From Erysipelotrichaceae bacterium (lineage in GTDB: Bacteria > Bacillota_I > Bacilli_A > Erysipelotrichales > Erysipelotrichaceae): a stretch of DNA of 64,000 bases. This document shows, piece by piece, positions 9,848 through 63,275 of the stretch. Under the pieces are notes generated by a model, which was not told the DNA's origin, ran no database searches, and worked only from the letters and a program-made list of their open reading frames with translations. Both the position numbers and the translations under genes were made by a program. The number at the start of each line of letters is the position of its first letter. Within the stretch, counting starts at the first letter, position 1. The DNA lies in the NCBI GenBank assembly GCA_040266995.1, contig JAWRHV010000023.1, positions 47,922 to 111,921 of the forward strand, written 5' to 3'.

Positions 9848-10779
9848 AATTCTTCCTCATATCCAATGCGATTGCGAAGCTGCAATAAGGAATCCAGTTC
9901 TCCCATCACCATCCAAATAAAATTCACAACCGGGATAAACGCTCCCATAATTGCCAAAAATGCAAGACTTCTTCTTTTGGTTCGAGCGGCTTTTGACAAA
10001 AAATACAAAACGCCCAGATAATCCAGCACCATGCAATCTACAATAAAAACGATCTGTAAAATATCCGTAGCTCTTGTATTTAATTCTACCATATTTTGAC
10101 ACAAAAGGAACACGAGACAGATGATCAATGACACAAAACCAACCCAGCGTGGAGAACGCATCTTGCGAACCGGTGTAATGGCCGGAATCGGGATGCGCAT
10201 GCGAAGACAGATCATCAGAGCAACCAGATGAATACACAATCCTTCCAATATTCCCATCAGAAGTACAAACAAAAAAATCAGTACGTTCAGGTGGATCACC
10301 GGAAAATAGTGCGTATAGACAGATAACTCGGTCGCCAGATCGTAGCCGAAGATGCCCGCCCATAGATAGACGGTCATACCCGTACCGATGATCGACAACA
10401 AGGCCGCCAGAGAAAAATTCACCATGTTTTTCCAGTGGTGATAGATTCCCGCCCCATAGACATATCCAGTCAAAATAGCTGACCAGCTGTAGAACCATGT
10501 AGTAAAGGCACCAAACAATAGGGTCATCAATGCCATCGCAACCGCCGGAATACCGGAGATCCGGGCACCGTTGGTCGCTGTATAGATCAAGATAGGAAAC
10601 GCAAAGAGCCATGAAGCACTGGTTTCGATTGCCAGCGCCGTCTGTTGATTTGCGAACAATAAAAGACCGTATATACCGCAGACCATAGCGCCGCGTGTTA
10701 ATTGATGTGTGTTCATATGTGCATATTTTACTCTATTTGCGCATAAATGAAAAGCCAGCCAATCCAGACAATCCGCCAA
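9844..10779 (-). CDS. yybS: YybS-family integral membrane protein (DUF2232)
   Basis: About 300 aa polytopic membrane protein directly upstream of and overlapping gdpP. The true start may be an internal Met near 10716. Confidence 0.7.
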   Translation of the reverse strand: MADCLDWLAFHLCANRVKYAHMNTHQLTRGAMVCGIYGLLLFANQQTALAIETSASWLFAFPILIYTATNGARISGIPAVAMALMTLLFGAFTTWFYSWSAILTGYVYGAGIYHHWKNMVNFSLAALLSIIGTGMTVYLWAGIFGYDLATELSVYTHYFPVIHLNVLIFLFVLLMGILEGLCIHLVALMICLRMRIPIPAITPVRKMRSPRWVGFVSLIICLVFLLCQNMVELNTRATDILQIVFIVDCMVLDYLGVLYFLSKAARTKRRSLAFLAIMGAFIPVVNFIWMVMGELDSLLQLRNRIGYEEEL

Positions 10780-16130: not shown

Positions 16131-16946
16131 TTACTTTTCCTTTAATAATCGTACCAATCGTTCTATGAGCCAGTCATTCTCCAGGCCTCTGTCATTATAA
16201 TATCGTATGCACTGCACATAAAGACGGATCCATTCCGCTGTCGGTGCTGTATCCGGTCTTACCTTCAGGATCCAAGGAGCCAAGGATGGTGCCGCTACCC
16301 CTTTTTTCATGCATAGCACCAGATAATCCCGATATAACGAAAAAGAATAAGAAACTTGTTCCATCCTTTCATTCAGGATGTCCCAGTACTCGTCCTTCCC
16401 CATCTTCACTAGCTGTATACAATCTGCCACCATCTTTTGGCGGCTTTCTTTATATAGATCCTGATAGAAAGGATCTGTCTTCGCATATGCCCGTAATGCC
16501 TTCTGATAACAAGTGATGGCTTTGGACGGCAGGCTGATCTTCTGGTATGCCCGAGCCCTCTGATCATAACATTCACCCTGTACATAATATATATGCGCAT
16601 ATTGGATGGCTGCCTCAAAGCAATATGGACAAGCTTCATGATAGTGTGGAAATACTTTTCCGCAATTCGTACAAACATAGCTTTCCTGGTTCTTGCTGAT
16701 ACACCGTTTTTTATACGGTGTTTTGTGAAGATGATCCATCCATATCGTCTTTTCGATTTCCTGAATAGAAGGCACGACACTTAAAAACGCCTCCGGGGCA
16801 TTCCTTCCCATTGTCTGCAGACCTTTTTCAATCAGCAATCGCCGCTTTTGATATATAGGATTTTTAGAATTCGGATCCAGATCCGATGGTGTATATTCAA
16901 AATAATCATTTCCGATCAAAAACCGATGATACTTTGTCAATGTCAT
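16131..16946 (-). CDS. hypothetical protein with a CxxC...CxxC zinc-ribbon and helical (TPR-like) repeats
   Basis: 271 aa with CTNCGKVFPHYHEACPYC followed by repeated AxxYxxA-type helices. I recognise no family for it. Confidence 0.45.
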   Translation of the reverse strand: MTLTKYHRFLIGNDYFEYTPSDLDPNSKNPIYQKRRLLIEKGLQTMGRNAPEAFLSVVPSIQEIEKTIWMDHLHKTPYKKRCISKNQESYVCTNCGKVFPHYHEACPYCFEAAIQYAHIYYVQGECYDQRARAYQKISLPSKAITCYQKALRAYAKTDPFYQDLYKESRQKMVADCIQLVKMGKDEYWDILNERMEQVSYSFSLYRDYLVLCMKKGVAAPSLAPWILKVRPDTAPTAEWIRLYVQCIRYYNDRGLENDWLIERLVRLLKEK

Positions 16947-17460: not shown

Positions 17461-18444
17461 TTATAACAAATGAGCCCGTAGATCATCATCGGATAGAGTA
17501 CTTAAATAAGCTGGTGGAATATCCAAAACAGTCTTACAGCCGGTCACGCCTTCATCGTAAAGACGTTTCACTGCCCGTGCATAAGCGACCAGTACACTGG
17601 TTGTGAATTCCGGATTTGAATCCAGCTTCAAGCTGTATTCAATAATGTGCTTATTCTCCTGATTCCATCCGGTTGTGCCGCTGCGGAATACAAAACCGCC
17701 GTGTGCCATTCCCTGGTGGTTGGCATTGAATTCTTCTTCCGAAATAAAATGTACAGTTGTATCATATTCATCAAAGTAGTTCGGCATCGTAACAATTTCC
17801 TGTTCCACTTTGGTGGCATCCGCGCCTTCTTTCAAGACTACAAAACATTCTCTGGTGTGTTTCTGACGGACGGAAAGCTGTGGCTGGCTGCCACTGCGTA
17901 CAGCATCCAGCGCTTCCTGTACCGGAATGGTATACTGTTTTGCGTTCTTGACGCCATCAATGCGTCGGATCGCATCCGAATGCCCCTGGGAAACACCTTT
18001 GCCCCAGAATGTATAGTCACTGCCATTTGGCAGGATTGCGTTGGCATATACACGATTCAAGGAGAACAATCCCGGATCCCAACCTACGGAAATCATAGCA
18101 ACATGACCAGAGTCCTTCGCTGCCTGATCTACGTTTTTAAAATGGGTTGGAATATTGGCGTGGGTATCAAAGCTGTCTATCACATTAAAGTACTTCGCAT
18201 ATTCCGGTGTTTGTACCGGCAGATCGGTGGCGCTTCCACCGCAAATGATCATAACGTCAATTTTATCCACCCATTGTTCCACATCGGCTACACTGCAGAC
18301 AGGCACATCTTCACAATGAATTTTTAATGTAGATGGATCTCTACGTGTAAAGACGGCAACCAGTTCCATATCCGGCGCAGCGGATACAGCACATTCTACT
18401 CCACGGCCCAAATTTCCATAACCAATAATACCAATTCTTGTCAT
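17461..18444 (-). CDS. ddh: meso-diaminopimelate D-dehydrogenase
   Basis: 327 aa starting MTRIGIIGYGNLGRGVE (Rossmann fold). The overall sequence is Ddh-like, and the gene is last in a lysA-dapA-dapB operon. Confidence 0.8.
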   Translation of the reverse strand: MTRIGIIGYGNLGRGVECAVSAAPDMELVAVFTRRDPSTLKIHCEDVPVCSVADVEQWVDKIDVMIICGGSATDLPVQTPEYAKYFNVIDSFDTHANIPTHFKNVDQAAKDSGHVAMISVGWDPGLFSLNRVYANAILPNGSDYTFWGKGVSQGHSDAIRRIDGVKNAKQYTIPVQEALDAVRSGSQPQLSVRQKHTRECFVVLKEGADATKVEQEIVTMPNYFDEYDTTVHFISEEEFNANHQGMAHGGFVFRSGTTGWNQENKHIIEYSLKLDSNPEFTTSVLVAYARAVKRLYDEGVTGCKTVLDIPPAYLSTLSDDDLRAHLL

Positions 18445-18480
18445 AGTCTCATCCTCCTCCTTTATTTGTGTATATTTTTT

Positions 18481-19185
18481 CTATAATAAGCTCTTCATAT
18501 TGTACATACCGGCCGGCTGGTTGACCACGAATTCAGCGGCACGGACAGCTCCGTTTACAAAAATCTGACGATTGGTCGCATGATGGGTAATCGTAATACT
18601 TTCATTGTCCCCAAAGAAATGCACCGTATGCTCTCCGGCTTCGGTTCCACCACGCAGGGCATGTACACCGATTTCCTTCTGCCGTGCACCAATCAGGCCT
18701 TCACGACCATATACCTTTTTATAGGCATTGTTCGGATCCATCGCTTCCAGCAATGCTTTCGCTGTCCCGCTGGGAGCATCCGCTTTCTGGTTATGGTGTG
18801 TCTCCACCAATTCCATATCAAAGGAATCTTCCAACAAAGGTGTCACCATTTTCAGCAATTCCGTCAGTACTGTTACACCATAAGAGAAATTGGCACTGAA
18901 GAAAACACGATGCTGTTTGGAAAGATCGGTCAGTTTCTGCTTCTGCGCTTCATCCAGACCGGTCGTTCCGTAGACCAGCGCGCAATCTGTTTTTGCGACA
19001 TAATCAAGGATCCAGTCCAGATTATCACGATGACTGAAATCCAGTAATACATCGGCTGGTTCCAGCCCTTCCAATACACTTAGATCGGTAGCATCCACAT
19101 TGGCCAGTACTGTATGACCTTTGGCTTCCGCCGTCTCTTTGATCAAAGAGCCCATGCGGCCTTTTCCGCCAATCAGCACTTTCAT
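18481..19185 (-). CDS. dapB: 4-hydroxy-tetrahydrodipicolinate reductase
   Basis: 234 aa starting MKVLIGGKGRMGSLI.... The DapB C-terminal domain is present. Confidence 0.85.
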   Translation of the reverse strand: MKVLIGGKGRMGSLIKETAEAKGHTVLANVDATDLSVLEGLEPADVLLDFSHRDNLDWILDYVAKTDCALVYGTTGLDEAQKQKLTDLSKQHRVFFSANFSYGVTVLTELLKMVTPLLEDSFDMELVETHHNQKADAPSGTAKALLEAMDPNNAYKKVYGREGLIGARQKEIGVHALRGGTEAGEHTVHFFGDNESITITHHATNRQIFVNGAVRAAEFVVNQPAGMYNMKSLL

Positions 19186-20057
19186 AAAAGCCCCACCTTT
19201 TCCATCTCGGCCTTCATCTTCGCCTTGTTTGCTTCACTCATCTCATACAAAGGTAACCGCAGAGTACCGGCATGCATACCCATTAGATTCAGGGCGGCTT
19301 TAACCGGGATCGGGTTTACTTCATAGAATAATGAATGAATATAGTCCAGATATTTCAGCTGAATATCCAGGGCTTTTTTCGTATCCCCGTTTAAATAGGA
19401 AGCAACCATTTCGTGGCATTCCTTCGGATTCGTATTGGCGAATACACTGATGACACCACTGCCTCCTAAGGAAAGGATCGGTACAACCATATCGTCATTG
19501 CCGCTATACATCACAAAATCATCATTAATCAGTTTAGCTACATTGGCAGCGTAGCTGATGTTTCCGCTGGCTTCCTTGATTCCTACAATATTCTTATGTT
19601 TTGATAATACTTCAACGGCATGCAGGCTCAAAGAGCATCCGGTACGTCCCGGTACATTGTAGATGATGATCGGTGTATGCACGCGGTCAGCGACAGCCAG
19701 GAAGTGTCGGATCATTCCTTCTTCGTTGGCCTTATTGTAGTATGGAGTAATCAGCAATAACGCATCGACTCCCATCCTTTCATATTTCAAGCTCTTTTCG
19801 ATGGCTGTCTGGGTATCGTTCGATCCGGAACCGGCAATCACCGGAACTCGCCCGTTGACCACCTTCATGGTATGTTCAACGACAGAGTCATCCTCTTCAT
19901 GTGTCATTGTGGAGCTCTCTCCGGTTGTTCCCAAAACAAGGATTCCATCCGTACCGTTTGAAATCTGGAATTCCAGCAAATTGGTCAAAGCCTCAAAATT
20001 AACGCTTCCATCTTCATTAAATGGTGTAACTAAAGCTACGATTGATCCTTTTATCAT
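19182..20057 (-). CDS. dapA: 4-hydroxy-tetrahydrodipicolinate synthase
   Basis: 291 aa with the GTTGES motif and a DapA-like fold. It overlaps the dapB start. Confidence 0.9.
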   Translation of the reverse strand: MIKGSIVALVTPFNEDGSVNFEALTNLLEFQISNGTDGILVLGTTGESSTMTHEEDDSVVEHTMKVVNGRVPVIAGSGSNDTQTAIEKSLKYERMGVDALLLITPYYNKANEEGMIRHFLAVADRVHTPIIIYNVPGRTGCSLSLHAVEVLSKHKNIVGIKEASGNISYAANVAKLINDDFVMYSGNDDMVVPILSLGGSGVISVFANTNPKECHEMVASYLNGDTKKALDIQLKYLDYIHSLFYEVNPIPVKAALNLMGMHAGTLRLPLYEMSEANKAKMKAEMEKVGLL

Positions 20058-20078
20058 AGTATTCTCCTCTTTTCTTTT

Positions 20079-21344
20079 TTAAAGATCCTGTTTGATCAGA
20101 TCTTCATATGTATCTCTTTTTACAACCAGACGACTTTGTCCGTCTTTGACAAAGACGACAGCCGGCCGGCATATACGATTGTAGTGACTGGACATGCTGA
20201 ATCCATAAGCTCCCGTTGTATAGGTGATCAACAGATCGCCCGGTTCGCATTTTGGCAGCATGGCTTGCTGCACCAGAATATCGCCGGATTCACAAAGCTT
20301 ACCAGCTACGCAGACCTCCTCCGTTTTATCTTCATCCATTCGGTTGGCAATATCACAGCTATATTTCGCGTCATACAATGCCGGCCGAATGTTATCGGAC
20401 ATACCTCCATCGACAAAGATATATTTTTTATGTAATGTGGTCTTCTGAAATCCTACCGTATACAGCGTACTTCCCGCTTCAGCCGCAATGCTGCGCCCCG
20501 GTTCGATCATCACTCTTTCCAGAGGAAGATTGTATTTTTCCTTCATAGCCTGGCACGTGGAGATAATCGTATCACAGACAACCGGTAACGGGATCGGTGT
20601 ATCCTCTTCTGTGTAGACGGCCGCAAACCCGCCACCCAGATCCAGCGTTTTTGCCTGGATTCCATACTCAGTCTGCAGCTCATACATGAACTTCGTCATC
20701 GTTTCGATCTCCGCCACGAAGGCATTCTTATCAAAGATCTGAGAACCGATATGTGCTTGAAATCCATCAAATACGATGTTTTCGCTTTCATCGAACAGTC
20801 GGATCAGCTGTGCGATCTCGTCTTTCAACCCGATCGCAATCCCGAATTTGGAATCCACATTGGCTGTTACGATGAACTTATGCGTATGGGCATCCACCCC
20901 CGGATTGACACGCAGGATAATATGCAGCTGATGATCTTCGTTTTTCATTCGCTCCACCAGATATCTGGCTTCCATGATATTATCCACAAAAAACGTTTTT
21001 ACTTTTGAAGAAATGGCATAATCCATTTCCGGCACCGATTTATTATTCCCGTTAAAATACATTCGGTCCGGATCAAAGCCGGCTGCCAACGCTGTATAGA
21101 TTTCCCCGCCGGATACTACATCCAGCGACAATCCATATTCATTGACCAGTTTCACCATTTCTTTGATACAGAACGCTTTGGATGCGTATAAAACCTCCGT
21201 ATCAAATAACTCCGATGTAAATAACGATTTATAATCACTTAATTTCTGACGAATGGCATTTTCGTCATATACATACAAAGGCGTCCCATATTCTTCTGCC
21301 AGCTTTGTGACCGGCACATCCTGAATTCTTAACACTTTCTCCAT
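20079..21344 (-). CDS. lysA: diaminopimelate decarboxylase
   Basis: 421 aa PLP-dependent decarboxylase (alanine racemase fold). It is directly downstream of an L-box. Confidence 0.9.
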   Translation of the reverse strand: MEKVLRIQDVPVTKLAEEYGTPLYVYDENAIRQKLSDYKSLFTSELFDTEVLYASKAFCIKEMVKLVNEYGLSLDVVSGGEIYTALAAGFDPDRMYFNGNNKSVPEMDYAISSKVKTFFVDNIMEARYLVERMKNEDHQLHIILRVNPGVDAHTHKFIVTANVDSKFGIAIGLKDEIAQLIRLFDESENIVFDGFQAHIGSQIFDKNAFVAEIETMTKFMYELQTEYGIQAKTLDLGGGFAAVYTEEDTPIPLPVVCDTIISTCQAMKEKYNLPLERVMIEPGRSIAAEAGSTLYTVGFQKTTLHKKYIFVDGGMSDNIRPALYDAKYSCDIANRMDEDKTEEVCVAGKLCESGDILVQQAMLPKCEPGDLLITYTTGAYGFSMSSHYNRICRPAVVFVKDGQSRLVVKRDTYEDLIKQDL

Positions 21345-21361
21345 AGACTCACCCCTTATCT

Positions 21362-21580
21362 AATAAAAATGTCAGTAGAATACAATCCTACTGACAAACA
21401 AATGAAAAATCCATCAATAAGATAGCACTCCTACTTACGTAGACAGTCCGACAAATATTCTTTGCCGACCCACCATTTAAAAATGCCTTTTTAAACAGTT
21501 CGGCGAAATTGCCTCCGTCTTATATCCAACGTTTGCCAACTCTATAAGACTTCATCGTTTTCGCGCCTCTATCAATTAGG
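21362..21580 (-). promoter_or_regulatory. lysine riboswitch (L-box) with an OFF-state terminator, leader of lysA-dapA-dapB-ddh
   Basis: The minus strand reads TAGAGGCGCGAAAACGATGAAG ... GACGGAGGCAATTTCGCCGAACTG ... TGGTGGGTCGGCAAAG ... GGACTGTCTACGTAAGTAGGAGTGCTATC. These match the conserved L-box blocks (AGAGGCGC, GGAG..GCCGAA, CTGTC, GGAG.GCTATC). A terminator follows: TGTCAGTAG-9nt-CTACTGACA plus UUUUUAUU (21371-21397). Confidence 0.85.
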
Positions 21581-23005: not shown

Positions 23006-23551
23006 ATGAAAATCAATTATATCCGTCTCAGTAAAAAAATCGCATATATACTCCGTCATCATCCCCAGGCCATCGGAATCACACTGGACGCATACGGTTT
23101 TGCGGATGAAGACGAATTATTAAAAGGATTGAACCAAAAGTATTCCTTTGGAAGAAACATCACACACGAAGACATTGTTTATCTGATCGAACACTCCGAA
23201 AAGAAACGTTTTGAGATCCAGAATCACAAAATTCGTGCATTATATGGTCATTCTTTGCCTGCTAAAGTGATAAAGGACGTTAGGAGACCACCGGTCCTTC
23301 TCTACCATGGAACTTCGCCGGATGTACTCCAATCCATCCATGAAAAAGGATTGCTGCCGATGAACCGACAATATGTCCATTTATCCGAAGACAGAAAAAC
23401 AGCCGAACAAGTCGGCCGACGCCATAGTCAGAAACCCGTGATCCTTGTCATTGAAGCACAGAAAGCATACCGGAACGGCATATCCTTTTTTTATGGAAAC
23501 GATACCACATGGCTTAGCCAGCCCATTCCACCTGTCTACATCCATCAATAA
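23006..23551 (+). CDS. kptA: RNA 2'-phosphotransferase KptA/Tpt1
   Basis: 181 aa with LSKKIAYILRHHP near the N-terminus (the Tpt1 substrate-binding tetrad region) and HGTS/YVHLS blocks. Confidence 0.8.
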   Translation: MKINYIRLSKKIAYILRHHPQAIGITLDAYGFADEDELLKGLNQKYSFGRNITHEDIVYLIEHSEKKRFEIQNHKIRALYGHSLPAKVIKDVRRPPVLLYHGTSPDVLQSIHEKGLLPMNRQYVHLSEDRKTAEQVGRRHSQKPVILVIEAQKAYRNGISFFYGNDTTWLSQPIPPVYIHQ

Positions 23552-27213: not shown

Positions 27214-28485
27214 TTAATCAAACTGATATTGGGAAGGATATGCGTAGATGTCGTAATGATCTACATCCTTTGCGGTAATGTCTCCCGGAATGGATAGAGA
27301 ATTCATAGAGAATCCAATCTTATCTCCGGCTTTTAATGGATCGGACAGAATTGTATAACAGCTGGCAATCATCTGTCCTTTCTTGTTGTACATAAGGATA
27401 ACAACGTTGGTAAAATCACTGTCCTTGTCGGAATCGTTTTCCACACGACCGGTGACAGAGATTCCTCCATACGACTTATCTTTGACCTTTACATCCGAAG
27501 TTTTAAAGCGGATACAATCCACCGTAGCCTTCTTTACATTCACATGCGGTACAACGGTCAAATCTTCCACTTCATCGGTATCAAGGATCGTCTCTTCGTA
27601 ATAGTAGGCCGTTTCTCCTGGCTTAACGATTTGCGGATAGGCATTTACATAGGTCACACTGTCTACAAGTTCGCCATCTTTGTTTTCCAGATCCATGGTT
27701 GCGTCTTCTAAATACAGATTGCCTTCGCCTGTATTTTCAATTGGCACAACGATCTGTACCCAGATCGAATCAATGCTGTCCTGCCAGGATGCCACAGTCG
27801 CCTTGCCAACTTCCCATTTCGCCTTTCCGGATTTATCAGAGCTCTTCTTTGACTCTTTTTTGGAATCATCTTTGTTCGTTTTTGTATCCTTAGCATCTGC
27901 CGTATCGCTCAAGCTTTCCGAACTCTTACAGATTTTTTCGAAGTCTCCGTCATATTCATACACGGCATTGTCACTTTCTCCTAAGCAGAAACATACGATC
28001 TGCTTGGTATCGGCATTGTAAACGAAGATGACTTCGAATGTAACAGACATATCTTCGATTTCACCGGTTGCCAGGATTCCATAGGCTTCATAACCGGCAA
28101 TCGTCAGATCGATTTCATCCTGCACGGACACATCCGCGCCCATACCGGAAATAAAATCGTCCTTGATCTGCTCTTTATATTTCCCGAAATCTTTCTGGAT
28201 GGATGACGGTGCCTTTTCCTCCGCCAACATCAACATCACAACCGATTCACCTGTTTCTGCATAGTAGTATAAAGTGTCATCGGAAGAGTTATCCCCCTTT
28301 TCAAAATAAGTCGGAATCTGGATGGCCATACCACCAAACGTAATAACTTCATTTGTGTTTTCATCAAAACCGTTTTTATCCTCTCGGGCATAAACAACCG
28401 ATGAACCGATCATCGGAACAGCGCCGGACAGATTAAAACTCAAGACAGTAAAAACAGCTAAGATAGCCGCAAATAGTTTTTTCAT
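27214..28485 (-). CDS. secreted hypothetical protein
   Basis: 423 aa with a signal peptide (MKKLFAAILAVFTVLSFNLSGAVP). It has a central Lys/Asp/Ser-rich linker (KDTKTNKDDSKKESKKSSDKSGKAK). I recognise no catalytic motif. Confidence 0.5.
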   Translation of the reverse strand: MKKLFAAILAVFTVLSFNLSGAVPMIGSSVVYAREDKNGFDENTNEVITFGGMAIQIPTYFEKGDNSSDDTLYYYAETGESVVMLMLAEEKAPSSIQKDFGKYKEQIKDDFISGMGADVSVQDEIDLTIAGYEAYGILATGEIEDMSVTFEVIFVYNADTKQIVCFCLGESDNAVYEYDGDFEKICKSSESLSDTADAKDTKTNKDDSKKESKKSSDKSGKAKWEVGKATVASWQDSIDSIWVQIVVPIENTGEGNLYLEDATMDLENKDGELVDSVTYVNAYPQIVKPGETAYYYEETILDTDEVEDLTVVPHVNVKKATVDCIRFKTSDVKVKDKSYGGISVTGRVENDSDKDSDFTNVVILMYNKKGQMIASCYTILSDPLKAGDKIGFSMNSLSIPGDITAKDVDHYDIYAYPSQYQFD

Positions 28486-34674: not shown

Positions 34675-37002
34675 CTATTTCATAATGGCTTCCGAATAGT
34701 GTGTCTGATTATAGGTATCGGTAAAACGATATACGATCTTCACCTTACCCTTTCCAACATCAATATTCCGGATCTTCATATCCTTTGTAACGGTCAAAGG
34801 CTCATCCAGCAGATAGCTGTTTTCATATTCCCCATCGTATGTATAGTAATCACAGACAAATTCCAGGGTGTCTCCTTCCTCCAGCTGAGTCAATGATTTT
34901 GCCACCGTTTCGGTTTCACCGTCGATATAATCTGTCGTCGCCCCGGCAATTATACCATCCGGATTTTCATTGGTGAATACTAGAATCAGATTGACACGCG
35001 TACCGTTTAAAAGAGCCGGTACATAGCCTGTAATCGTGTAATTGTCGCCATCTTCCTGGGTATCCGTATGATAATAGGCAACCACTCTTCCATTGATGGA
35101 TAACCAGGTACGATCTGTCACCGCAATCAGATTACCCTCGTCATCAAAGTCGTAGTTGTTGTCTAGTCCCAGATCCACATATCCGGTTCCATCATCATAA
35201 TACAAGCTCTGATCGACGGTCTGCACCATTTCCCATTGCTCTTCCGTCAAGGATAATTTATACGTTCCATCCTCTTCCTTCCACGTTAACTGGGAATCGT
35301 CGATATGATGTTTATCGACAAAATCGGTAATCTCTTCATTGGTGATGGACCGTCCGGATAGGAAGTTCGTATTCGAGCTGTTCAGACCATTAACAGAACT
35401 GTAATTGCCCCCACCGAGGAACAGATTCAGCAGTTCCATCATCGCTTCGGAATCGGAATTCGAAGTGGACTGTTGACTTCCACCTAACAGATTCAACAAG
35501 TTCTGGGAAGAACCGGACTGCGAGGAGTAAGCTTGTCCGCCGGCTTCCACACTGGCAAATTCCTGAATACATTTCGCATATTCTTCGTCCATGCCAATTT
35601 TTGAATACGTATCCACAACCGTATCCACACTGGAAATGCGGTCATACGGGAAAAAGATGGATAATCCGTAGGAATTGGTCATGTTCGAGGAAGTTCGGTT
35701 GTATTTTACGGCCCCCTTGACCGCCTCCGAAAGTGCTTTTCCTTCTTCCGTATTCATTTTGTCAGCCAGATCCACCAGGTCGACCTGATCAATACGCTGG
35801 CTGGTCGCAAAGGTCCGGCACTGGTTTCGTGCCTGGGAGACCGTACTGTATTCCTTGGCCTTGATTTTTGTGGAAATCGATTTAGCAAACGCATTTAACT
35901 TATCCGGTACGGTATTCTGCAATTCCGCCAGATCCACTAAAGCCAGGGTTGTTTTCTGTCCCGGACAACGCGATCCGCATTTCGTTACAAAATCATCGCA
36001 GATCTGTTTTCCTATATCCAGTGTTTTCATCGATGTGTTGTTGGAAAGCTTTGTTAACCAGTCCGTATAATACCAACCGATGCCCGGTTCAGTTTCTTCG
36101 GATCCAATCAGATAATCCGCATAATTTGCCAGCATACTGGCCGTTTCGACCGTTCCCATCAAACAGGCATCAAATCCAATAAAGTCAAAGTTGACATTTG
36201 CGTTATCCAGAGCCTGATTGATTTCACTGAGATCCATGGAGCCGCTGGACCGGTACTTTTCATCATACCCAAATCCGCTGATCGAGCCGCCACCATGATC
36301 CCACAGGATCAGTTCATAACGATTCGCTTTATAATTCTTGGCACACCATTTGATAAAAGACGTCAACGTGGTTGGATCGGTCATGGATTTACGACCGTCA
36401 TCGGCAACGACCCGTGCCATCTTACCATCCTTGATCTGATAGATCTGGTTCACGCTGGAGCTGACAACATTATTATTCCATCGTGCGCATCCGCCGGTAT
36501 ATACCAGCAGGTTCACATTATCGCCAATCGTCGCCGCCAGCATTTCCTGCAGATCGCTGGTTGCCATGCGGCTTCGGGATTCCAGATCGGTACCGCACAT
36601 ATATACCATGATCGTGACTGTATCCTGGCCATCTCCCATCAGTTTGGTGCGCTTTGCCCGCGATCCCTTGGCAACCGTGGTATCCAGTTTCGCGACATTG
36701 GAATCTGTCCACTGGCCATAGGTATTCGATGTCTGGTATGAATACTGTGACTGGCCAGAACCGCCACCAGTGGAAGGGGCCCCGCCAAACAAGCTGGAAA
36801 GACTGACGCCGCCCCCCATCAGCAGCATCAACAAGATGACCAGAATGCCTCCAAAACCTCCACGCGTTCCGGATCGTTTCGGGCCGGATCCTCCCGGACC
36901 GACCGGTCCGCTGTTCAAGCCGGATCCACGTCGATGCACATTTCCTTGCACGCTATGATCTACATGTGTTTCTCTTCTTCGTGGTCTTCTCTTATTATCC
37001 AT
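34675..37002 (-). CDS. clostripain-family (C11) cysteine peptidase, membrane-anchored
   Basis: 775 aa. An Arg/Gly-rich N-terminal tail is followed by a single transmembrane helix (ILVILLMLLMGGGV). The catalytic dyad context is ILWDHGGG (His) and GFDACLMG (Cys), together with IMVYMCGTDLES. Confidence 0.8.
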   Translation of the reverse strand: MDNKRRPRRRETHVDHSVQGNVHRRGSGLNSGPVGPGGSGPKRSGTRGGFGGILVILLMLLMGGGVSLSSLFGGAPSTGGGSGQSQYSYQTSNTYGQWTDSNVAKLDTTVAKGSRAKRTKLMGDGQDTVTIMVYMCGTDLESRSRMATSDLQEMLAATIGDNVNLLVYTGGCARWNNNVVSSSVNQIYQIKDGKMARVVADDGRKSMTDPTTLTSFIKWCAKNYKANRYELILWDHGGGSISGFGYDEKYRSSGSMDLSEINQALDNANVNFDFIGFDACLMGTVETASMLANYADYLIGSEETEPGIGWYYTDWLTKLSNNTSMKTLDIGKQICDDFVTKCGSRCPGQKTTLALVDLAELQNTVPDKLNAFAKSISTKIKAKEYSTVSQARNQCRTFATSQRIDQVDLVDLADKMNTEEGKALSEAVKGAVKYNRTSSNMTNSYGLSIFFPYDRISSVDTVVDTYSKIGMDEEYAKCIQEFASVEAGGQAYSSQSGSSQNLLNLLGGSQQSTSNSDSEAMMELLNLFLGGGNYSSVNGLNSSNTNFLSGRSITNEEITDFVDKHHIDDSQLTWKEEDGTYKLSLTEEQWEMVQTVDQSLYYDDGTGYVDLGLDNNYDFDDEGNLIAVTDRTWLSINGRVVAYYHTDTQEDGDNYTITGYVPALLNGTRVNLILVFTNENPDGIIAGATTDYIDGETETVAKSLTQLEEGDTLEFVCDYYTYDGEYENSYLLDEPLTVTKDMKIRNIDVGKGKVKIVYRFTDTYNQTHYSEAIMK

Positions 37003-37086
37003 AACTCTGTCCTCACTCTATTTGTTCTTTTCATCTATTCTAACATATTTTGCGTTGGCCGTAACTTTTATGATACCCTTAATAAC

Positions 37087-39600
37087 ATGAAAAGAATCGT
37101 TACCGGAATACTAGCCCATGTCGATGCTGGAAAAACCACATGCATCGAAAGTATGTTATACAATGCCGGCAAGCTTCGAATGATGGGAAGAGTCGATCAC
37201 AAGGATGCTTATCTGGACTATGACAGCCAGGAACGGGATCGGGGCATCACCATTTACTCAAAGGAAGCCAATTATACTTGGAAAGATGCGGAAATCTATC
37301 TAATCGATACCCCGGGCCACGTAGACTTTTCCAGTGAGATGGAACGAAGTCTGCAGATCCTGGATCTGGCCATCTTGTTGATCAACGGGATGGACGGGGT
37401 ACAAAGCTATACGGAAACCATCTGGAAATGTCTGCAGCACTATCATGTGCCTACGTTGATCTTCATCAATAAAATGGATATTACCTACATGGAAAAAGAA
37501 CAGCTGCTCCATGACCTGCAGACAAAATGCTCATCCAATTGTATTGCGTTCAATCAGACAGATACGATGGAACAGCTTGCGTTGGTCAATGAGCCCATGT
37601 TAAACCAGTTTATGGAAACAGGTGACATTTCCTTGTCGATGATCCAGGAAGCCGTCCTGAAACGTGAATGTTTTCCTTGTTTCTTCGGCTCCGCTTTAAA
37701 AAATAACGGGATCACCGACTTGATGGATGCTATTGTGACCTGTTCCTTCCAAAGAGAATACCCGAAAGAATTTGCGGCCAGAGCCTATAAGATCTCCACC
37801 GATGCCCAGGGTAACCGTCTGACCCATATGAAGATCACCGGTGGCAGCCTGGCAGCCAAACAGAAGATCAACGATGAAGAAAAGGTCGATCAGATCTGGA
37901 TCTATAACGGGCCGGATCGGCAGGCTGTTCAACAAGTGCAGGCAGGCATGGTCTGTGCGGTAAAAGGGTTGCATTCCATCCAGGCCGGACAGCCGTTAGG
38001 CGCGGAAACAGACACCACAAAACCGGTTTTAAGTGCGTGTTTGCGTTACCAGCTTTTGCTTCCGGAAGGCGTCGATGCTCTGGAGATGATGCAAACCTGC
38101 CGCCAGCTGGCGGCCGAGGATCCACAGCTGCAAATTGAATTTGACGAGCAAAGTAAAAAGATCCACATTCAGCTGATGGGTGCCATTCAGATGGAAGTCC
38201 TTCAGAATCAGATTTATCAACGCTCCAAAGTACACGTTGGTTTTCAAAGCGGACAGGTCCTTTATCGAGAAACGATTGCCAAGCCTGTACTCGGTATCGG
38301 TCATTTTGAACCCTTGCGTCATTATGCCGAGGTTCTTCTTCAGCTGGAACCTTTACCTGCGGGAAGCGGCCTTGTCTTTGAAAGCCAATGCTCCCAGGAC
38401 CAGCTGGCGTTAAACTGGCAGCGCTTGATCCTGACCCATCTTCAAGAACGCACCCATAAGGGTGTATTGACCGGATCTCCGATTACGGATATGAAGATCA
38501 CTCTATTGGCGGGGATAGCCCATGTGAAGCATACCGAAGGGGGCGACTTTCGTCAGGCCACCTACCGGGCAGTCCGCCAAGGCTTAAAAAAAGCCGAAAG
38601 TGTATTATTGGAACCGTATTATGCCTTTACGATCCAGGTTCCCCAGGACAGCCTGAGCCGCACGTTATACGATCTGGATTGCCGGCATGCCACCGTCCAG
38701 ATCGAGCAACAGGATCGCGATTATGTCGAAATTACCGGAAAAGGTCCGGTCCGACGGATGGCGAATTATCAAAAGGAATTGATTTCCTTTACCCGGGGAC
38801 TGGGTAAGTACAGCTGTACTGTCGACGGTTACTTTCCTTGTGCCGATCAAGACGAAATCGTCCGTCAGATCGGTTATGACAGTGAACATGACCTTCGCAA
38901 TCCAACGGGTTCGGTCTTTTGTTCCCATGGTTCGCGTTTCTATGTTCCCTATGATCAGGTAGAGGACTATATGCATATCCAATGGAAGCAGCCGAAAGCG
39001 CCTTCCTCTTTGTCCAGCCGGAAATATACGATCCAGGAGGAAGAGATGAAGCGCATCTTCCAGAATGCCGGCGGCAGAAACCGCAACGAAAAAAAAGTGA
39101 CACCGAAGCCAAAAAAGAAAATCGATATGGAGCCCCAATCGGTACAGATCCAGGCGCCAAAGCCAAACTGTTTGATCGTTGACGGTTACAATATGCTCTA
39201 TTCCTGGACTTCCTTCCAAGAATCGGTACGAACCAGTTTCAGCTCCGCCCGCGATCAGCTGATCGATATGATCATCAACTATCAAGGATATAGAGGGTAT
39301 GTTCTATACCTTGTCTTTGATGCTTACCGTGTTAAGGACAATGCCGGAAAAACGTATCGCAGAGGCAACACAAATATCATTTACACCAAAACCAATCAGA
39401 CAGCCGATGACTATATTGAACGTCTTGTGCATGATCTGAAAAAGAAGTATCGGTTGATTGTCGCTACCAGTGACGGTCTGATCCAGAATGCTGTGTTAGC
39501 CAACGGCGGGCAAAGAATGTCCAGCCGGGAACTGGAAAATGCCGTCCGCAATGTAAATACACTGGCTCTATCCCACGGAAAAAAAGGTGGTTCGTTTTAA
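37087..39600 (+). CDS. TetM/TetO-like translational GTPase fused to a C-terminal Rae1/YacP-type NYN ribonuclease domain
   Basis: The G motifs are AHVDAGKTT, RGITI, DTPGH and NKMD. The body is TetM-like (CFPCFFGSALKNNGITDLMDAIV). After a Lys/Pro linker comes CLIVDGYNMLYSW...LVFDAYRVKDN...IIYTKTNQTADDYIERL...LIVATSD, which matches the YacP/Rae1 NYN fold. It is one uninterrupted reading frame. I started it at MKRIVTG, not at the 51-aa upstream extension. Confidence 0.8.
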   Translation: MKRIVTGILAHVDAGKTTCIESMLYNAGKLRMMGRVDHKDAYLDYDSQERDRGITIYSKEANYTWKDAEIYLIDTPGHVDFSSEMERSLQILDLAILLINGMDGVQSYTETIWKCLQHYHVPTLIFINKMDITYMEKEQLLHDLQTKCSSNCIAFNQTDTMEQLALVNEPMLNQFMETGDISLSMIQEAVLKRECFPCFFGSALKNNGITDLMDAIVTCSFQREYPKEFAARAYKISTDAQGNRLTHMKITGGSLAAKQKINDEEKVDQIWIYNGPDRQAVQQVQAGMVCAVKGLHSIQAGQPLGAETDTTKPVLSACLRYQLLLPEGVDALEMMQTCRQLAAEDPQLQIEFDEQSKKIHIQLMGAIQMEVLQNQIYQRSKVHVGFQSGQVLYRETIAKPVLGIGHFEPLRHYAEVLLQLEPLPAGSGLVFESQCSQDQLALNWQRLILTHLQERTHKGVLTGSPITDMKITLLAGIAHVKHTEGGDFRQATYRAVRQGLKKAESVLLEPYYAFTIQVPQDSLSRTLYDLDCRHATVQIEQQDRDYVEITGKGPVRRMANYQKELISFTRGLGKYSCTVDGYFPCADQDEIVRQIGYDSEHDLRNPTGSVFCSHGSRFYVPYDQVEDYMHIQWKQPKAPSSLSSRKYTIQEEEMKRIFQNAGGRNRNEKKVTPKPKKKIDMEPQSVQIQAPKPNCLIVDGYNMLYSWTSFQESVRTSFSSARDQLIDMIINYQGYRGYVLYLVFDAYRVKDNAGKTYRRGNTNIIYTKTNQTADDYIERLVHDLKKKYRLIVATSDGLIQNAVLANGGQRMSSRELENAVRNVNTLALSHGKKGGSF

Positions 39601-39610
39601 ACGAATCACC

Positions 39611-40798
39611 TTATTCTTTTACGATTTCAACACCATCCGGATTTCCGACGATCGAAGTGAAATAATCGGCAATCCATTGTTTGGTCATATCTTCACCCTT
39701 TGTGACTGTACAATAATGGCTGGCTGCCAGATCATCGGTCCACTGCTCGATCGTATAGACTTTATAATTCTGATAATTGGCATCATACCAGGTTATCGTC
39801 GGCGTAAACTTAACATCGGAAAAGCTTGTTTCCTTGGTCCTGAAATTATAGGACAAGCAGAAACTCGGCATACCCCCGACCATATTTTCGTTGTGATCCT
39901 GCGAGCTCAGGAAATTGCCGACCGAATAATAGCACAACGTATCCTGGTTTTGACCATGAATGATTTCTACCGGCTGGACCACATGCGGATGGCCGCCAAT
40001 GATAACCTCCACACCCAGTTCATTTAACAGTTCGGCATAATATTTCTGTTCTTCGTTCGGTATGGTTTCATACTCTACGCCCCAGTGCATCGATACGATC
40101 TGGATATCGCTGACTTCTTTCAGTTTTTCCATGTCGCTTCGGATCTTGTCTTCCTCAATCAGATTAATCAGCCATTCATAGCCTTCCGGTAGTTCAAATC
40201 CATTGAGCCCGTATGTATAACTGGCCAGACCGACCCGGATCCCGTTCATCTCCACGACCGTCGGGATCTCTGATTCCTCTTTCGAAGTATAAGAACCTGT
40301 GACCGTCAGCTGCGGATCGTGCTCCTTGATATAGTTCAGATTTGCCAGGACACCTTGGACACCCCGGTCAAATGTATGATTGGAGCATAAAGATAACCAG
40401 TTAAACCCGGCATGCGCAATGGAATCGTTAAATTCAGTCGGTCCGTTAAAGACCGGATAGCCGCTGTATTCAAGTTCCTGGCCGGCACAGATCGTCTCAT
40501 AGTTGATATAGTTCAAATCACTTTTTTCTGTATACTCCTTGATGGGATCGTAAATATCGTCATAGTTGCCATCTTCATCATACGCGAAGATCACATCGTG
40601 TAAAAGATTATCCCCTACCCCCATAAAACGGAAGGAGCCGATTTGGTCTTGTTCTGCTGCGGTTTCCTCCTTCTTTTCTTTTTTCTCTTTTACTACGGGT
40701 TTCTCTTCTTTTTCCAGATGTGTATAAATCAGATAACCATCCAGGCCGATACACGCGATCAAGAGAACACTGAGTATACCTATCAGTACTTTCTTCAT
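39611..40798 (-). CDS. CapA-family metallophosphoesterase (PGA_cap)
   Basis: 395 aa with a signal/TM N-terminus, a Lys/Glu linker, then FMGVGDNLLHD and the GGHPHV motif typical of CapA. Confidence 0.75.
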   Translation of the reverse strand: MKKVLIGILSVLLIACIGLDGYLIYTHLEKEEKPVVKEKKEKKEETAAEQDQIGSFRFMGVGDNLLHDVIFAYDEDGNYDDIYDPIKEYTEKSDLNYINYETICAGQELEYSGYPVFNGPTEFNDSIAHAGFNWLSLCSNHTFDRGVQGVLANLNYIKEHDPQLTVTGSYTSKEESEIPTVVEMNGIRVGLASYTYGLNGFELPEGYEWLINLIEEDKIRSDMEKLKEVSDIQIVSMHWGVEYETIPNEEQKYYAELLNELGVEVIIGGHPHVVQPVEIIHGQNQDTLCYYSVGNFLSSQDHNENMVGGMPSFCLSYNFRTKETSFSDVKFTPTITWYDANYQNYKVYTIEQWTDDLAASHYCTVTKGEDMTKQWIADYFTSIVGNPDGVEIVKE

Positions 40799-45237: not shown

Positions 45238-45261
45238 AAAAACCGGCTTTAGCCGGTTTTA
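45236..45261. terminator. bidirectional terminator
   Basis: AAAAACCGGCT-tt-AGCCGGTTTT perfect hairpin. It overlaps both convergent stop codons. Confidence 0.8.
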
Positions 45262-45816
45262 TTCGTAGGATGGGCGTGGCTGTGACTGGTTTTCCTGCCA
45301 GTACTCCATAGCCAATTCATACATAACTTCATCAATATCCTCTTCTTCATATTCCAGTGCATCTTCATAAAAATCATCATAATGCGCTTGAGCATAATCC
45401 TCGGCTGTCGGATACTGGTCCACTTCCTTATCCCGTGCCTGTTCAAATCGTTCCCACTTTTCATACGCAGCCTGCGCATTGATACACCAGATCTTTTCTC
45501 CGTTCTTTTCCTCCATATGAGGCAGCCCGTCATCATCCCAATACAGTTTGTTGATCCGCTGCACTTTCGTGACTTTGCCGTTTCGTACGCGAACCATCAA
45601 TACACGTTCGCCCTGGATCTTCCATATATATACATTATTCTTATAAGAGGTATGCTTGCCACAAAGCGTTTCATCGATATCTTGTTCCGGCATTCCTTCA
45701 TAGGGAACCTCTTGTGAAGTTCTTGTTTCTGTTGTAGTGACCTGGGCAGTTGTTTGTTCATAACCGACACAACCAATCAACAACCAAAGAACGCATGCCC
45801 ATTGAAACCATTTCAT
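45259..45816 (-). CDS. lipoprotein with an acidic C-terminal region
   Basis: Lipobox LLIGC after MKWFQWACVLW. I started it at the internal Met of the 238-aa ORF. Confidence 0.55.
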   Translation of the reverse strand: MKWFQWACVLWLLIGCVGYEQTTAQVTTTETRTSQEVPYEGMPEQDIDETLCGKHTSYKNNVYIWKIQGERVLMVRVRNGKVTKVQRINKLYWDDDGLPHMEEKNGEKIWCINAQAAYEKWERFEQARDKEVDQYPTAEDYAQAHYDDFYEDALEYEEEDIDEVMYELAMEYWQENQSQPRPSYE

Positions 45817-45949
45817 ATCTTTAGTATACACGAAAAGATGAAAAACAGATAAAAACATCTTGATAAACAAAAATATTTTATCGTTTTTCGATATATTTTT
45901 ATTGACTTTCAAAATATTGAATGTTACCATCACGGTGGAGGTACTACTT

Positions 45950-46411
45950 ATGAATTCAAAAATTGTTACTTTCACAAAAACATGTCTGGATATTATTTTT
46001 GTTCTCAGTATACTTGGAACCCTGGCATGCCCTTACCTGATCAAACTCTATGCGATGCATCAAAGGACCAACCAATATGCTCGTATAGGTCATAATTATG
46101 TTCTTTTATGTATATTATTTACCATTGCGGGCTTTTTGGGGATCTTGATTCTCTTTGAGCTTAGAAAGATGATGAAATCCGTACAGAAAGAAGACTGTTT
46201 TGTCTATGAAAACGTAACGAGTTTAAAAAAAATGGGAACCTATGCGTTTCTGATTTCCATCGATATGAGCTTACGTGTCTTTACCTACATAACCCCTTCT
46301 ATTTTATTGATCGTCTTTACGTTTCTGATTGCCGGGCTTTTCAGCAAAGTGCTGGCTCTGGTCTTTGAACAGGCAGTCCAGTATAAGCTGGAAAACGATA
46401 TGACAATCTAG
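45950..46411 (+). CDS. DUF2975-family membrane protein
   Basis: 153 aa with four transmembrane helices. It is directly upstream of a YozG-like small HTH gene, which is the usual pairing. Confidence 0.6.
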   Translation: MNSKIVTFTKTCLDIIFVLSILGTLACPYLIKLYAMHQRTNQYARIGHNYVLLCILFTIAGFLGILILFELRKMMKSVQKEDCFVYENVTSLKKMGTYAFLISIDMSLRVFTYITPSILLIVFTFLIAGLFSKVLALVFEQAVQYKLENDMTI

Positions 46412-62384: not shown

Positions 62385-62444
62385 TATATCCTTATTGTTT
62401 ATATTAATATGAGATTAATGAATGATAATAAAACAGGAGGTTCC

Positions 62445-63275
62445 ATGAAGAGTTTTATCCGAAAATTTGGTATCTTTATAACCAGTCTGGCGATTTTATG
62501 CTCTATCTTTGCGGTTTCATTCAGTCAGACCCTATTTAAAGAAGATTTTATGAAAGCGCAGCTTGACAAAACCAACCTATATTCCGATATTACCATCGAA
62601 ATCAAGCGCGATATGAAACAATCCATTATGGAGGACACAACATTCGGGACGGCCCTGGAATCGGTCATCGATGTATTCCTGGACACCATCATCACACAGG
62701 AAGCAATCACGAAAGAGGTAGACGCGGTCATCGATCAAATCTATGAAGGCAAGGATATCCAGATCAGCGGCGAGTATTTGACCCAGGATTATGTATCCCA
62801 TATGCAGGCATTCCTGAAAGAATACAACGTTACTGCCGGTGAAAAGGAGCTGAAATCCCTCATTGACCCGATTGTACAGGAGTCATTGAAAAATGTGGTC
62901 ATCAGCGATCGTGTCAAAAATGCCGTGAATCTGTTCTATCAGGCAAAACAGGCGACCGATATTGCCAAGTATGCGGCACCAGCTGTTTCCATACTGCTGA
63001 TCCTGGCCATGCTGATCTTTACACAGGATAAGATAAAAAACGTTGGATTCATATTCTTATGGGCCGGTATCATTCTGGCTGTACTGATTACGCTTGGATT
63101 TGCAGCAACCGTTCTGCTGAAGCTGTATCCATCCAGTGCAACTGTAACCAGCTTCATCAACACTCTACGTGACAGTCTGATGATCGCTTATTACATTACC
63201 GCCGGCATTAGTGCCGCCTTCGGCCTGCTTCTGTTATTGATCCATTGGATCATCAAGAAAATCAGAAACCGATAA
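62445..63275 (+). CDS. membrane protein of unknown function
   Basis: An N-terminal transmembrane helix, a soluble middle and three C-terminal transmembrane helices. I started it at MKSFIRK (RBS AGGAGG). Confidence 0.45.
   Translation: MKSFIRKFGIFITSLAILCSIFAVSFSQTLFKEDFMKAQLDKTNLYSDITIEIKRDMKQSIMEDTTFGTALESVIDVFLDTIITQEAITKEVDAVIDQIYEGKDIQISGEYLTQDYVSHMQAFLKEYNVTAGEKELKSLIDPIVQESLKNVVISDRVKNAVNLFYQAKQATDIAKYAAPAVSILLILAMLIFTQDKIKNVGFIFLWAGIILAVLITLGFAATVLLKLYPSSATVTSFINTLRDSLMIAYYITAGISAAFGLLLLLIHWIIKKIRNR

Follow-up and report, generated by a model that had tools for sequence, protein, structure and literature searches.

A TetM-like translational GTPase fused to a Rae1-type NYN endonuclease in an Erysipelotrichaceae bacterium

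Proteins in which a TetM-like translational GTPase (trGTPase) continues into an NYN_YacP domain have been described by Atkinson in 2015 (PMC4342817) and by Matelska et al. in 2017 (PMC5499597), and the architecture is annotated by Pfam and NCBI. Both accounts record the architecture only, in ten species or in "some Clostridia", and the earlier one proposed that a role of the RNase in resistance be tested (PMC4342817). Here, we analyze a member of this group encoded on the forward strand, at positions 37087-39600, of a 64,000-nucleotide stretch of DNA from an Erysipelotrichaceae bacterium (GCA_040266995.1, contig JAWRHV010000023.1), referred to below as the window. An earlier reading made from the letters alone (the sequence-only reading) had described the gene as a fusion in a single open reading frame (ORF) and had proposed that the GTPase delivers the RNase to the decoding center of the ribosome.

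The nuclease part is related to Rae1 (YacP) of Bacillus subtilis, a free protein of ~170 residues that is encoded in the gltX-cysS-mrnC-yacO-yacP operon and binds ribosomes transiently. All of its experimentally mapped substrates are mRNAs, the cleavage of which depends on translation (PMC10351889, PMC12407103, PMC13622287). An in silico docking had earlier put Rae1 in the A site (recounted in PMC10351889 and PMC12407103), and the sequence-only reading took action there as its premise, but the authors of that model have since withdrawn it and now locate the cut 12 nucleotides upstream, at the stalled ribosome's tail (PMC12407103). A 2026 preprint reports that Rae1 generates substrates for transfer-messenger RNA (tmRNA) on collided ribosomes; it also states that no structure of ribosome-bound Rae1 exists, binding being transient, and that the mode of recognition is open (PMC13622287).

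Architecture and conservation of the fusion protein

Our analysis confirms that the covalent fusion at positions 37087-39600 is genuine and conserved, and that it joins a trGTPase to a Rae1-type NYN nuclease, both apparently active. The complete gene is enclosed by an uninterrupted ORF at 36934-39600 (+), in which the ATG at 37087 (MKRIVTGILAHVDAGKTT) is the start favored by homologs beginning MKRIV or MISMKRIV, yielding a protein of 837 residues. Pfam finds EF-G domains I-V followed by NYN_YacP, and the sequence-only reading was right in both content and coordinates. The AlphaFold2 (AF2) model has a mean predicted local distance difference test (pLDDT) score of 79.6 and a predicted template-modeling (pTM) score of 0.42, with domains I-V modeled confidently, and a Foldseek search with the whole model returned EF-G structures only (Staphylococcus aureus EF-G at E = 8e-51). 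Relatives were drawn from 5.8 billion proteins, from exhaustive HMMER matches to the last 249 residues alone (the NYN end) and from GTDB species, each represented by a single scanned genome. The locus analysis comprised the best 80 of at least 531 relatives. Four of these 80 loci are cut by contig ends, leaving 76 untruncated, and residue counts given below refer to an alignment of 76 species-level proteins.

Motifs G1-G5, the catalytic His, domains II-V and the EF-G fold place the N-terminal body in the EF2/EF-G superfamily of trGTPases. Its G domain, with a shortened G' insert, spans residues 1-222 (37087..37752; Pfam GTP_EFTU at residues 4-219, E = 6.5e-50). All four motifs named by the sequence-only reading are present, namely AHVDAGKTT (G1, residues 10-18, 37114-37140), RGITI (G2, residues 52-56, including T55), DTPGH (G3, residues 74-78, with the codon of the catalytic His78 at 37318-37320) and NKMD (G4, residues 128-131); G5 reads SAL. 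D13, K16, T17, T55, D74, G77, H78, K129 and D131 are each found in 76 of 76 proteins. Domains II and III occupy residues about 225-388 (37759..38250; Pfam EF-G_D2 at 230-304 and EFG_III at 330-385), with pLDDT values mostly of 80-92, and domain V occupies residues 506-588 (38602..38850; Pfam EFG_C, E = 3.8e-16). Between them, domain IV (residues 389-504, 38251..38598; Pfam EFG_IV, E = 3.6e-22) carries two family-specific tip loops, GIGHFEPLRHYAEV at 38293-38334 and GIAHVKHTEGGDFR at 38512-38553, which form a signature peculiar to the fusion family: GxGHFEPLRHYAEV together with AHxKHTEGGDFR. Within it, H406, E408, P409, H412, E415, H482, T483, D487 and F488 are invariant (76/76 each), and K481, at the position of TetM Pro509, is conserved in 75.

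Domain V is followed by a module that AF2 and conservation delineate at residues 589-632 (38851..38982). It is modeled as a helix, a beta-hairpin and a short helix (residues 588-628, pLDDT about 80-89) and carries the motif YDxExDxxNPxGSVFCxHGxGFxVPxxxVxxYMH, with Y597, D602, S609, F611, C612 and G615 each in 76 of 76 proteins. The module sits where TetM has its C-terminal extension, to which it is unrelated in sequence, and no NCBIfam model matches the C-terminal part of the fusion protein, this module included.

A Lys/Glu/Ser/Arg-rich, mostly disordered tether connects the module to the nuclease (residues 633-693, 38983..39165). Its pLDDT falls below 50 at residues 636-651 and 662-689, and between these lies a short helix (651-660) with the motif EEEMKRIF (about 39031-39075), which is semi-conserved: E653 is found in 67 of 76 proteins, with hydrophobic residues at +1, +4 and +5. 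Across 35 diverse members the tether is 57-189 residues long, 57 being the minimum. In the window, its Lys-rich part contains a homopolymer of eight adenines (A8) at 39089-39096. In rare "GTPase-only" homologs of 678 residues (P0105 and P0106), a one-base frameshift in the corresponding A8 run ends the protein early, and the NYN frame that follows is intact (L001, about 8015-8040); such split genes could reflect sequencing error, pseudogene formation or slippage-prone switching.

The NYN_YacP endonuclease domain comprises residues 694-833 (39166..39585), which AF2 models as well folded, and is matched by Pfam at residues 696-824 (E = 2.8e-40) with 138.5 bits against a gathering cut-off of 24.6. 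A phmmer search against the Rae1 structures (PDB 5MQ8/5MQ9) gave E = 5e-21 at about 40% identity, through the blocks LLVDGYNMIGAW, VVFDAH, TKENETADERIEKL and VATSD, and thereby reproduced the block-by-block match to B. subtilis YacP noted earlier. Aligned with Rae1, the catalytic Asp codons are those of D699 (39181-39183), D745 (39319-39321), D774 (39406-39408) and D796 (39472-39474), each of which is present in 76 of 76 proteins. D699 aligns with D7 and D774 with D81 of Rae1, and the Rae1 D7N D81N protein is catalytically dead (PMC10351889). The NYN part is a true member of the YacP family, its catalytic residues intact. All three ways in which the sequence-only reading had said it could fail were examined: the frame is open throughout, the C-terminal part scores against the NYN profile and the key acidic positions are in place. 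The domain spans profile positions 1-131 of 166, and the last ~35 positions of canonical YacP are missing. Lachnospiraceae-type members (P0136, P0146, P0241 and P0288) cover positions 1-161 to 1-165 of 166 and score 161-185 bits; on profile coverage, then, the window's clade is one that has lost the C-terminal ~35 residues of canonical Rae1. Separately, extrachromosomal elements of about 97-135 kb in Clostridioides difficile (H7-H15) carry a free-standing NYN_YacP-type gene that is 41% identical to the NYN part.

How widespread is this domain order? More than 110 protein clusters have the full-length fusion architecture, at 51-63% identity to the window protein and with Floccifex, Faecalicoccus and Thomasclavelia among the named sources. 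At E <= 1e-3 the search with the last 249 residues matched 2,734 cluster representatives, of which 220 remained at the stricter E <= 1e-30; full-length representatives are mostly 800-1,156 residues long, and the match lies at their C-terminus. At least 531 pattern-confirmed relatives occur in GTDB species genomes, and the best 80 all span the segment after domain V and the NYN domain. Among the matches listed, the family ranges over Erysipelotrichaceae, Lachnospiraceae, Oscillospiraceae/Ruminococcaceae, Christensenellales and Anaerovoracaceae, and the closest genome is an uncultured Faecalitalea metagenome-assembled genome with 97% identity. Carriers in the GTDB scan include Holdemanella hominis, Dubosiella muris, Faecalicoccus acidiformans, Longibaculum muris and Holdemania massiliensis. 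The family is abundant in human-gut Firmicutes, a single cluster at 90% identity holding 12,434 sequences. A profile search started from a diverse alignment (A1) was dominated by an abundant Lachnospiraceae clade of 896-residue proteins and added little diversity. One outlier, P0270 (1,156 residues), carries an insert of ~330 residues in the G domain, GTP_EFTU spanning residues 3-520, and the insert has no Pfam match.

Mean pairwise identity is 0.46 for the GTPase, 0.48 for the module after domain V and 0.46 for the NYN domain, and GTPase and NYN distances correlate with r = 0.53. The correlation and the equal identities are what one would expect of modules that are inherited and constrained together. 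All modules are under equal constraint, and the gene has the behavior of a housekeeping gene passed on vertically. The possibility of a frameshift or assembly artifact was considered and ruled out: the G1 motif and the NYN domain lie in one ORF of 822-997 residues in 75 of the 76 untruncated loci, with no frameshift or stop between the two parts in the window, and every module has invariant residues.

A proposed mechanism and its alternatives

A ribosome-directed RNase is the natural reading of such a fusion. We propose that the protein is a GTPase-gated, tethered mRNA nuclease that acts on stalled or collided ribosomes and feeds tmRNA rescue, a model to which we assign a probability of roughly 0.45. 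It would be a chromosomal, housekeeping-type ribosome-surveillance factor, the TetM/EF-G-like module of which would dock at the factor-binding site, while the tip of domain IV would probe the A site or decoding center and read out the stalled state. The sensed state may be a post-translocation (POST) ribosome with a vacant A site, as for TetM, or a rotated pre-translocation (PRE) ribosome, as for EF-G. The NYN endonuclease, kept close by a flexible tether that is 57 residues long or longer, would cut the mRNA outside the decoding center, probably at the bound ribosome's entry side or in the stretch that separates a stalled ribosome from the one that has run into it from behind. The shortened message would be handed to tmRNA, as for free-standing Rae1, and GTP hydrolysis would release the factor. 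The GTPase may in this way replace or reinforce the transient ribosome recognition of free Rae1. That the protein binds ribosomes, which state it senses, that mRNA is its substrate, where it cuts and that tmRNA takes over are all inferences in this scheme. The locus is core-chromosomal, non-operonic and non-mobile, the G and NYN residues are intact and the YacP scores are typical, all of which supports the model.

Could a nuclease held in this manner reach the message? By homology, domain IV would fill the A site, and the NYN domain would not be there simultaneously. A disordered chain of at least 57 residues would extend to about 200 Å in contour length, and by our estimate it would typically span about 60 Å, enough to reach the entry-side mRNA of the bound ribosome. 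Were the factor bound to the trailing member of two collided ribosomes, the inter-ribosome mRNA, where free Rae1 is now thought to cut, would also be within reach. The minimum tether of 57 residues fits the idea that a certain reach is required.

Several points weigh against this model. We found no experimental characterization of any fusion member in the literature; to this extent the sequence-only reading, which knew of no characterized protein with this architecture, still stands, although the architecture itself was described in 2015 and 2017. The window's clade has the shortened Rae1 tail, so its nuclease may behave differently, and the substrate could be rRNA or tRNA instead of mRNA. With a pTM of only 0.42, the AF2 model does not fix the reach of the NYN domain or its docking on the GTPase body. 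The fusion could be either a replacement for free-standing rae1 or an extra paralog. Finally, the GTPase is closest to the tetracycline ribosomal-protection proteins (RPPs), and a drug-related role therefore keeps some claim. We hold somewhat more tentatively, at less than even odds, the view of the protein as a self-contained stall- or collision-rescue factor in which the GTPase reads the A-site state and licenses the Rae1-type nuclease in the same chain to cut outside the decoding center for tmRNA rescue.

Of the alternatives, an enzyme directed at rRNA or tRNA survives best, and we consider it unlikely. The GTPase would then take immature or damaged ribosomes on a "test drive", and the NYN domain would trim or cleave rRNA or tRNA in maturation, quality control or decommissioning. 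Yeast offers an analogy, in that cleavage by Nob1 is stimulated by eIF5B. The RNA substrate cannot be read from the architecture, and the 3' end of 16S rRNA would lie near the mRNA exit, where Rae1 is now thought to act. NYN_YacP was, moreover, first predicted to serve rRNA or tRNA processing, from an operon shared with mrnC and an rRNA methyltransferase gene (PMC5499597, PMC4342817). Set against this, the experimentally mapped Rae1 substrates are translation-dependent mRNAs throughout, the fused NYN domains are typical, high-scoring members of YacP, and rRNA-processing genes adjoin the fusion gene in none of the 80 loci.

Less probable still is a variant of tetracycline ribosomal protection, in which the GTPase dislodges tetracycline like TetM/TetO and the nuclease adds to or modifies resistance, as Atkinson suggested in 2015. 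Among NCBIfam models the best match is indeed tet_protect (394 bits), and a collinear, unbroken alignment to TetO covers residues 1-585, ending at TetO residue 613 of 639. The tet_protect score is, however, half the curated cut-off of 775, and the specific models are further away: tet_protect_M_W at 283 bits against 1100, Tet(M) at 243 against 1420 and Tet(Q) at 258 against 1425. Loop III of domain IV keeps the TetO length and the downstream DFR but reads AHVKHT in place of YYSPVS, loops I and III have an invariant signature of their own, and Lys stands at the Pro509 position in 75 of 76 proteins. In TetM, Pro509 (loop III, L505-V510) contacts C1054 in the tetracycline site (PMC8161019), yet the S508A/P509A/V510A triple mutant is still active (PMC4750697). 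The activity of this mutant means that the loop sequence alone is not decisive: it weakens the case for drug displacement and is weak functional evidence. The C-terminal helix of TetM, which is important for function (PMC4750697), is gone, its place being taken by the unrelated conserved module, then the tether, then the nuclease.

The genetic setting also argues against a resistance determinant. The gene lies on the core chromosome, identity to the window protein declines roughly by taxonomic family, no transposon or conjugative context was found in the window or among the 80 loci, and no mobile genes recur in the latter. Plasmid records with the fusion number 2 of 72,556, both of them large, non-mobilizable replicons, and the one inspected, from Agathobacter rectalis, has housekeeping neighbors. 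Database names lend the drug reading some apparent support, given that RefSeq and GenBank often label members as TetM, TetW, TetO or TetS family resistance proteins (P0027, P0054 and P0286; WP_306784676.1 in L085). Other members are named "translation factor GTPase family protein" or "NYN domain-containing protein", and this inconsistency arises because NCBIfam has no model for the C-terminal part.

Delivery of the NYN domain into the decoding center for RelE-like cleavage of the A-site codon, as the sequence-only reading had it, is very unlikely in our view. Both fusion parts are related to proteins of the A-site region, and the in silico docking of Rae1 once pointed there. With Rae1's cut now placed 12 nucleotides upstream, that rationale is outdated. 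Domain IV would occupy the A site by homology with EF-G and TetM, whose structures on the ribosome are established, and its invariant tip loops suggest a contact of its own, so that delivery of the NYN domain to the same place is sterically improbable; in the AF2 model the nuclease hangs after domain V on its long disordered tether, at the other end of the body from the domain IV tip.

We give equally little credence to an anti-phage or toxin-like effector that shuts down translation upon infection or stress, a role also raised by the sequence-only reading: ribosome-directed nucleases are common toxins, Rae1-type cleavage has been speculated to act against invader mRNAs (PMC13622287) and the A8 run of the tether could in principle permit on/off switching, but PADLOC gave no match, the neighborhood is one of core genes, no antitoxin-like, immunity or defense-island neighbor recurs in the 80 loci, and the family is essentially absent from viral contigs.

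The locus and its surroundings

The fusion gene is monocistronic and is flanked on the opposite strand by a convergent PGA_cap gene and by a divergent gene (34675-37002, -) for a C11 (clostripain-family) peptidase. The peptidase has 775 residues, a hydrophobic segment and an N-terminal region rich in Gly and Ser, and its gene is not kept beside the fusion gene in other species. A terminator-like 13-bp hairpin at 39584..39612, a pattern match from a consensus scan, overlaps the stop codon and would be common to the fusion gene and the convergent PGA_cap gene. At the 5' end, no recognizable Shine-Dalgarno sequence precedes the ATG at 37087 (window 37020-37090), and a six-codon mini-ORF, MIPLIT (ATG at 37070, TGA at 37088-37090), ends in an ATGA that it shares with the start codon. 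In some database entries the protein starts at Met32 (806 residues), which would remove the G1 motif. The 84-bp intergenic region upstream of the gene has no Rfam match and holds no tet(M)-like leader or attenuator RNA.

No neighbor recurs beside the fusion gene when 637 neighbor proteins from the 80 loci are compared all against all, the next commonest family being found in 13 of 80, and the association with helix-turn-helix (HTH) genes reported by Matelska et al. in 2017 is not recurrent in these loci. Neither the window nor the loci contain genes of the gltX-cysS-mrnC-yacO-yacP operon or a second NYN or trGTPase gene. PADLOC detected no defense system, and no defense-island neighborhood is present in the window or recurs in the 80 loci.

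A scan of 2.9 million viral contigs returned one weak match. Two fecal scaffolds labeled "UNVERIFIED: Bacteriophage sp." match the fusion, and we examined one of them (L084, MT835563.1). It encodes an 875-residue fusion homolog together with an NAD(P)H-hydrate dehydratase, an enolase-superfamily enzyme and a citrate-type transporter, and no phage hallmarks were found on it; it looks like mislabeled bacterial DNA. Phage carriage of the fusion was rejected on the basis of the viral-contig scan and this bacterial gene content.

The rest of the window is core chromosome, with genes for ATP synthase, upp, dnaB, GdpP, ssb, an Ech-type hydrogenase with hyp genes and an H+-pyrophosphatase. A lysine riboswitch (Rfam RF00168, 95.5 bits) at 21415-21579 (-) lies upstream of a lysA-dapA-dapB-diaminopimelate dehydrogenase operon (17461-21344, -), an ordinary arrangement. 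A solitary gene for a Tpt1/KptA-family RNA 2'-phosphotransferase (23006-23551, +) stands beside that for a GH32 glycoside hydrolase of 1,126 residues. Five ORFs of 238-423 residues have no Pfam match at E <= 1e-5: 27214-28485 (-), 45259-45975 (-), 9857-10612 (-), 16131-16946 (-) and 62409-63275 (+).

Implications and relation to known systems

What is the relevance of a Rae1-type domain joined to a GTPase of this kind? The recognition of ribosomes by Rae1 is an open question (PMC13622287), to which a natural fusion of its domain with a factor-site GTPase suggests one solution. If the proposed model holds, the fusion would show how Rae1-type nucleases find ribosomes and could provide the first structural view of a Rae1-type domain in action, since GTPases can be caught on the ribosome by non-hydrolyzable analogs. 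A practical handle is at hand, in that GDPNP (guanosine 5'-(beta,gamma-imido)triphosphate) or a His78 mutant could trap the fusion for cryo-electron microscopy and cleavage mapping. As a rescue factor, the protein would be a one-protein counterpart of the logic of eukaryotic GTPase-guided surveillance and no-go-decay nucleases.

The family also matters for annotation. TetM-type mislabeling is a likely source of false resistance calls in gut metagenomes and can inflate resistome counts. Surveys of Rae1 by hmmsearch without a size filter, as was used for the distribution survey in the 2026 preprint (PMC13622287), would silently count the fusions as Rae1.

In comparison with Rae1/YacP, the fusion shares the NYN_YacP fold and sequence and the four active-site Asp residues, and a link to translation is expected for both. 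It differs in that the NYN domain is the C-terminal 17% of an 837-residue GTPase rather than a free protein. With TetM and TetO (PDB 3J9Y and 4V6V) it shares the five-domain EF-G-like body and, through tet_protect, its best match to a curated model. Unlike typical TetM/TetO genes, it is chromosomal and not borne by transposons or plasmids, mobile carriage being typical of those genes and not strictly defining. EF-G, EF-G2 and EFGII have the same fold, intact GTPase motifs and catalytic His, but the score against the EF-G equivalog model (TIGR00484) is 304 bits, below the cut-off of 659. Loop I reads GHFEPLRHYAEV, the GGRGQ(Y/F)GHV motif of EF-G having given way to HFEPLRHYAEV at the GGRGQ position, the G' subdomain is shortened and a nuclease is appended.

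SmrB of Escherichia coli, Cue2 of yeast and MutS2 embody the same concept of a nuclease-type domain brought to stalled or collided ribosomes. MutS2 provides a precedent, with an NTPase sensor and an SMR nuclease-fold domain in one chain (PMC13622287). The fusion differs from this group in having an NYN instead of an SMR fold and a trGTPase instead of an ABC-type ATPase clamp, and the SMR domain of MutS2 is catalytically inactive. To our knowledge, no tested rescue factor combines a trGTPase with an active nuclease.

The closest described proteins remain the fusions of Atkinson and of Matelska et al., of which the window protein is an ortholog in Erysipelotrichaceae, with equal domain order and Pfam families. 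To those records of architecture, our analysis adds the size and spread of the family (at least 531 species-genome matches and about 220 clusters at 50% identity, E <= 1e-30), the domain IV signature, the conserved module after domain V, the tether motif and minimum length, and the loss of the Rae1 tail in the window's clade. It further adds the scores that place the protein outside the curated RPP and EF-G families, the non-mobile, non-phage context and the link to the revised model of Rae1 action. The fusion is a member, in an Erysipelotrichaceae clade with a shortened Rae1 tail, of a previously noted, uncharacterized family; it is not a categorically new system but a good experimental lead on the targeting of Rae1-type nucleases.

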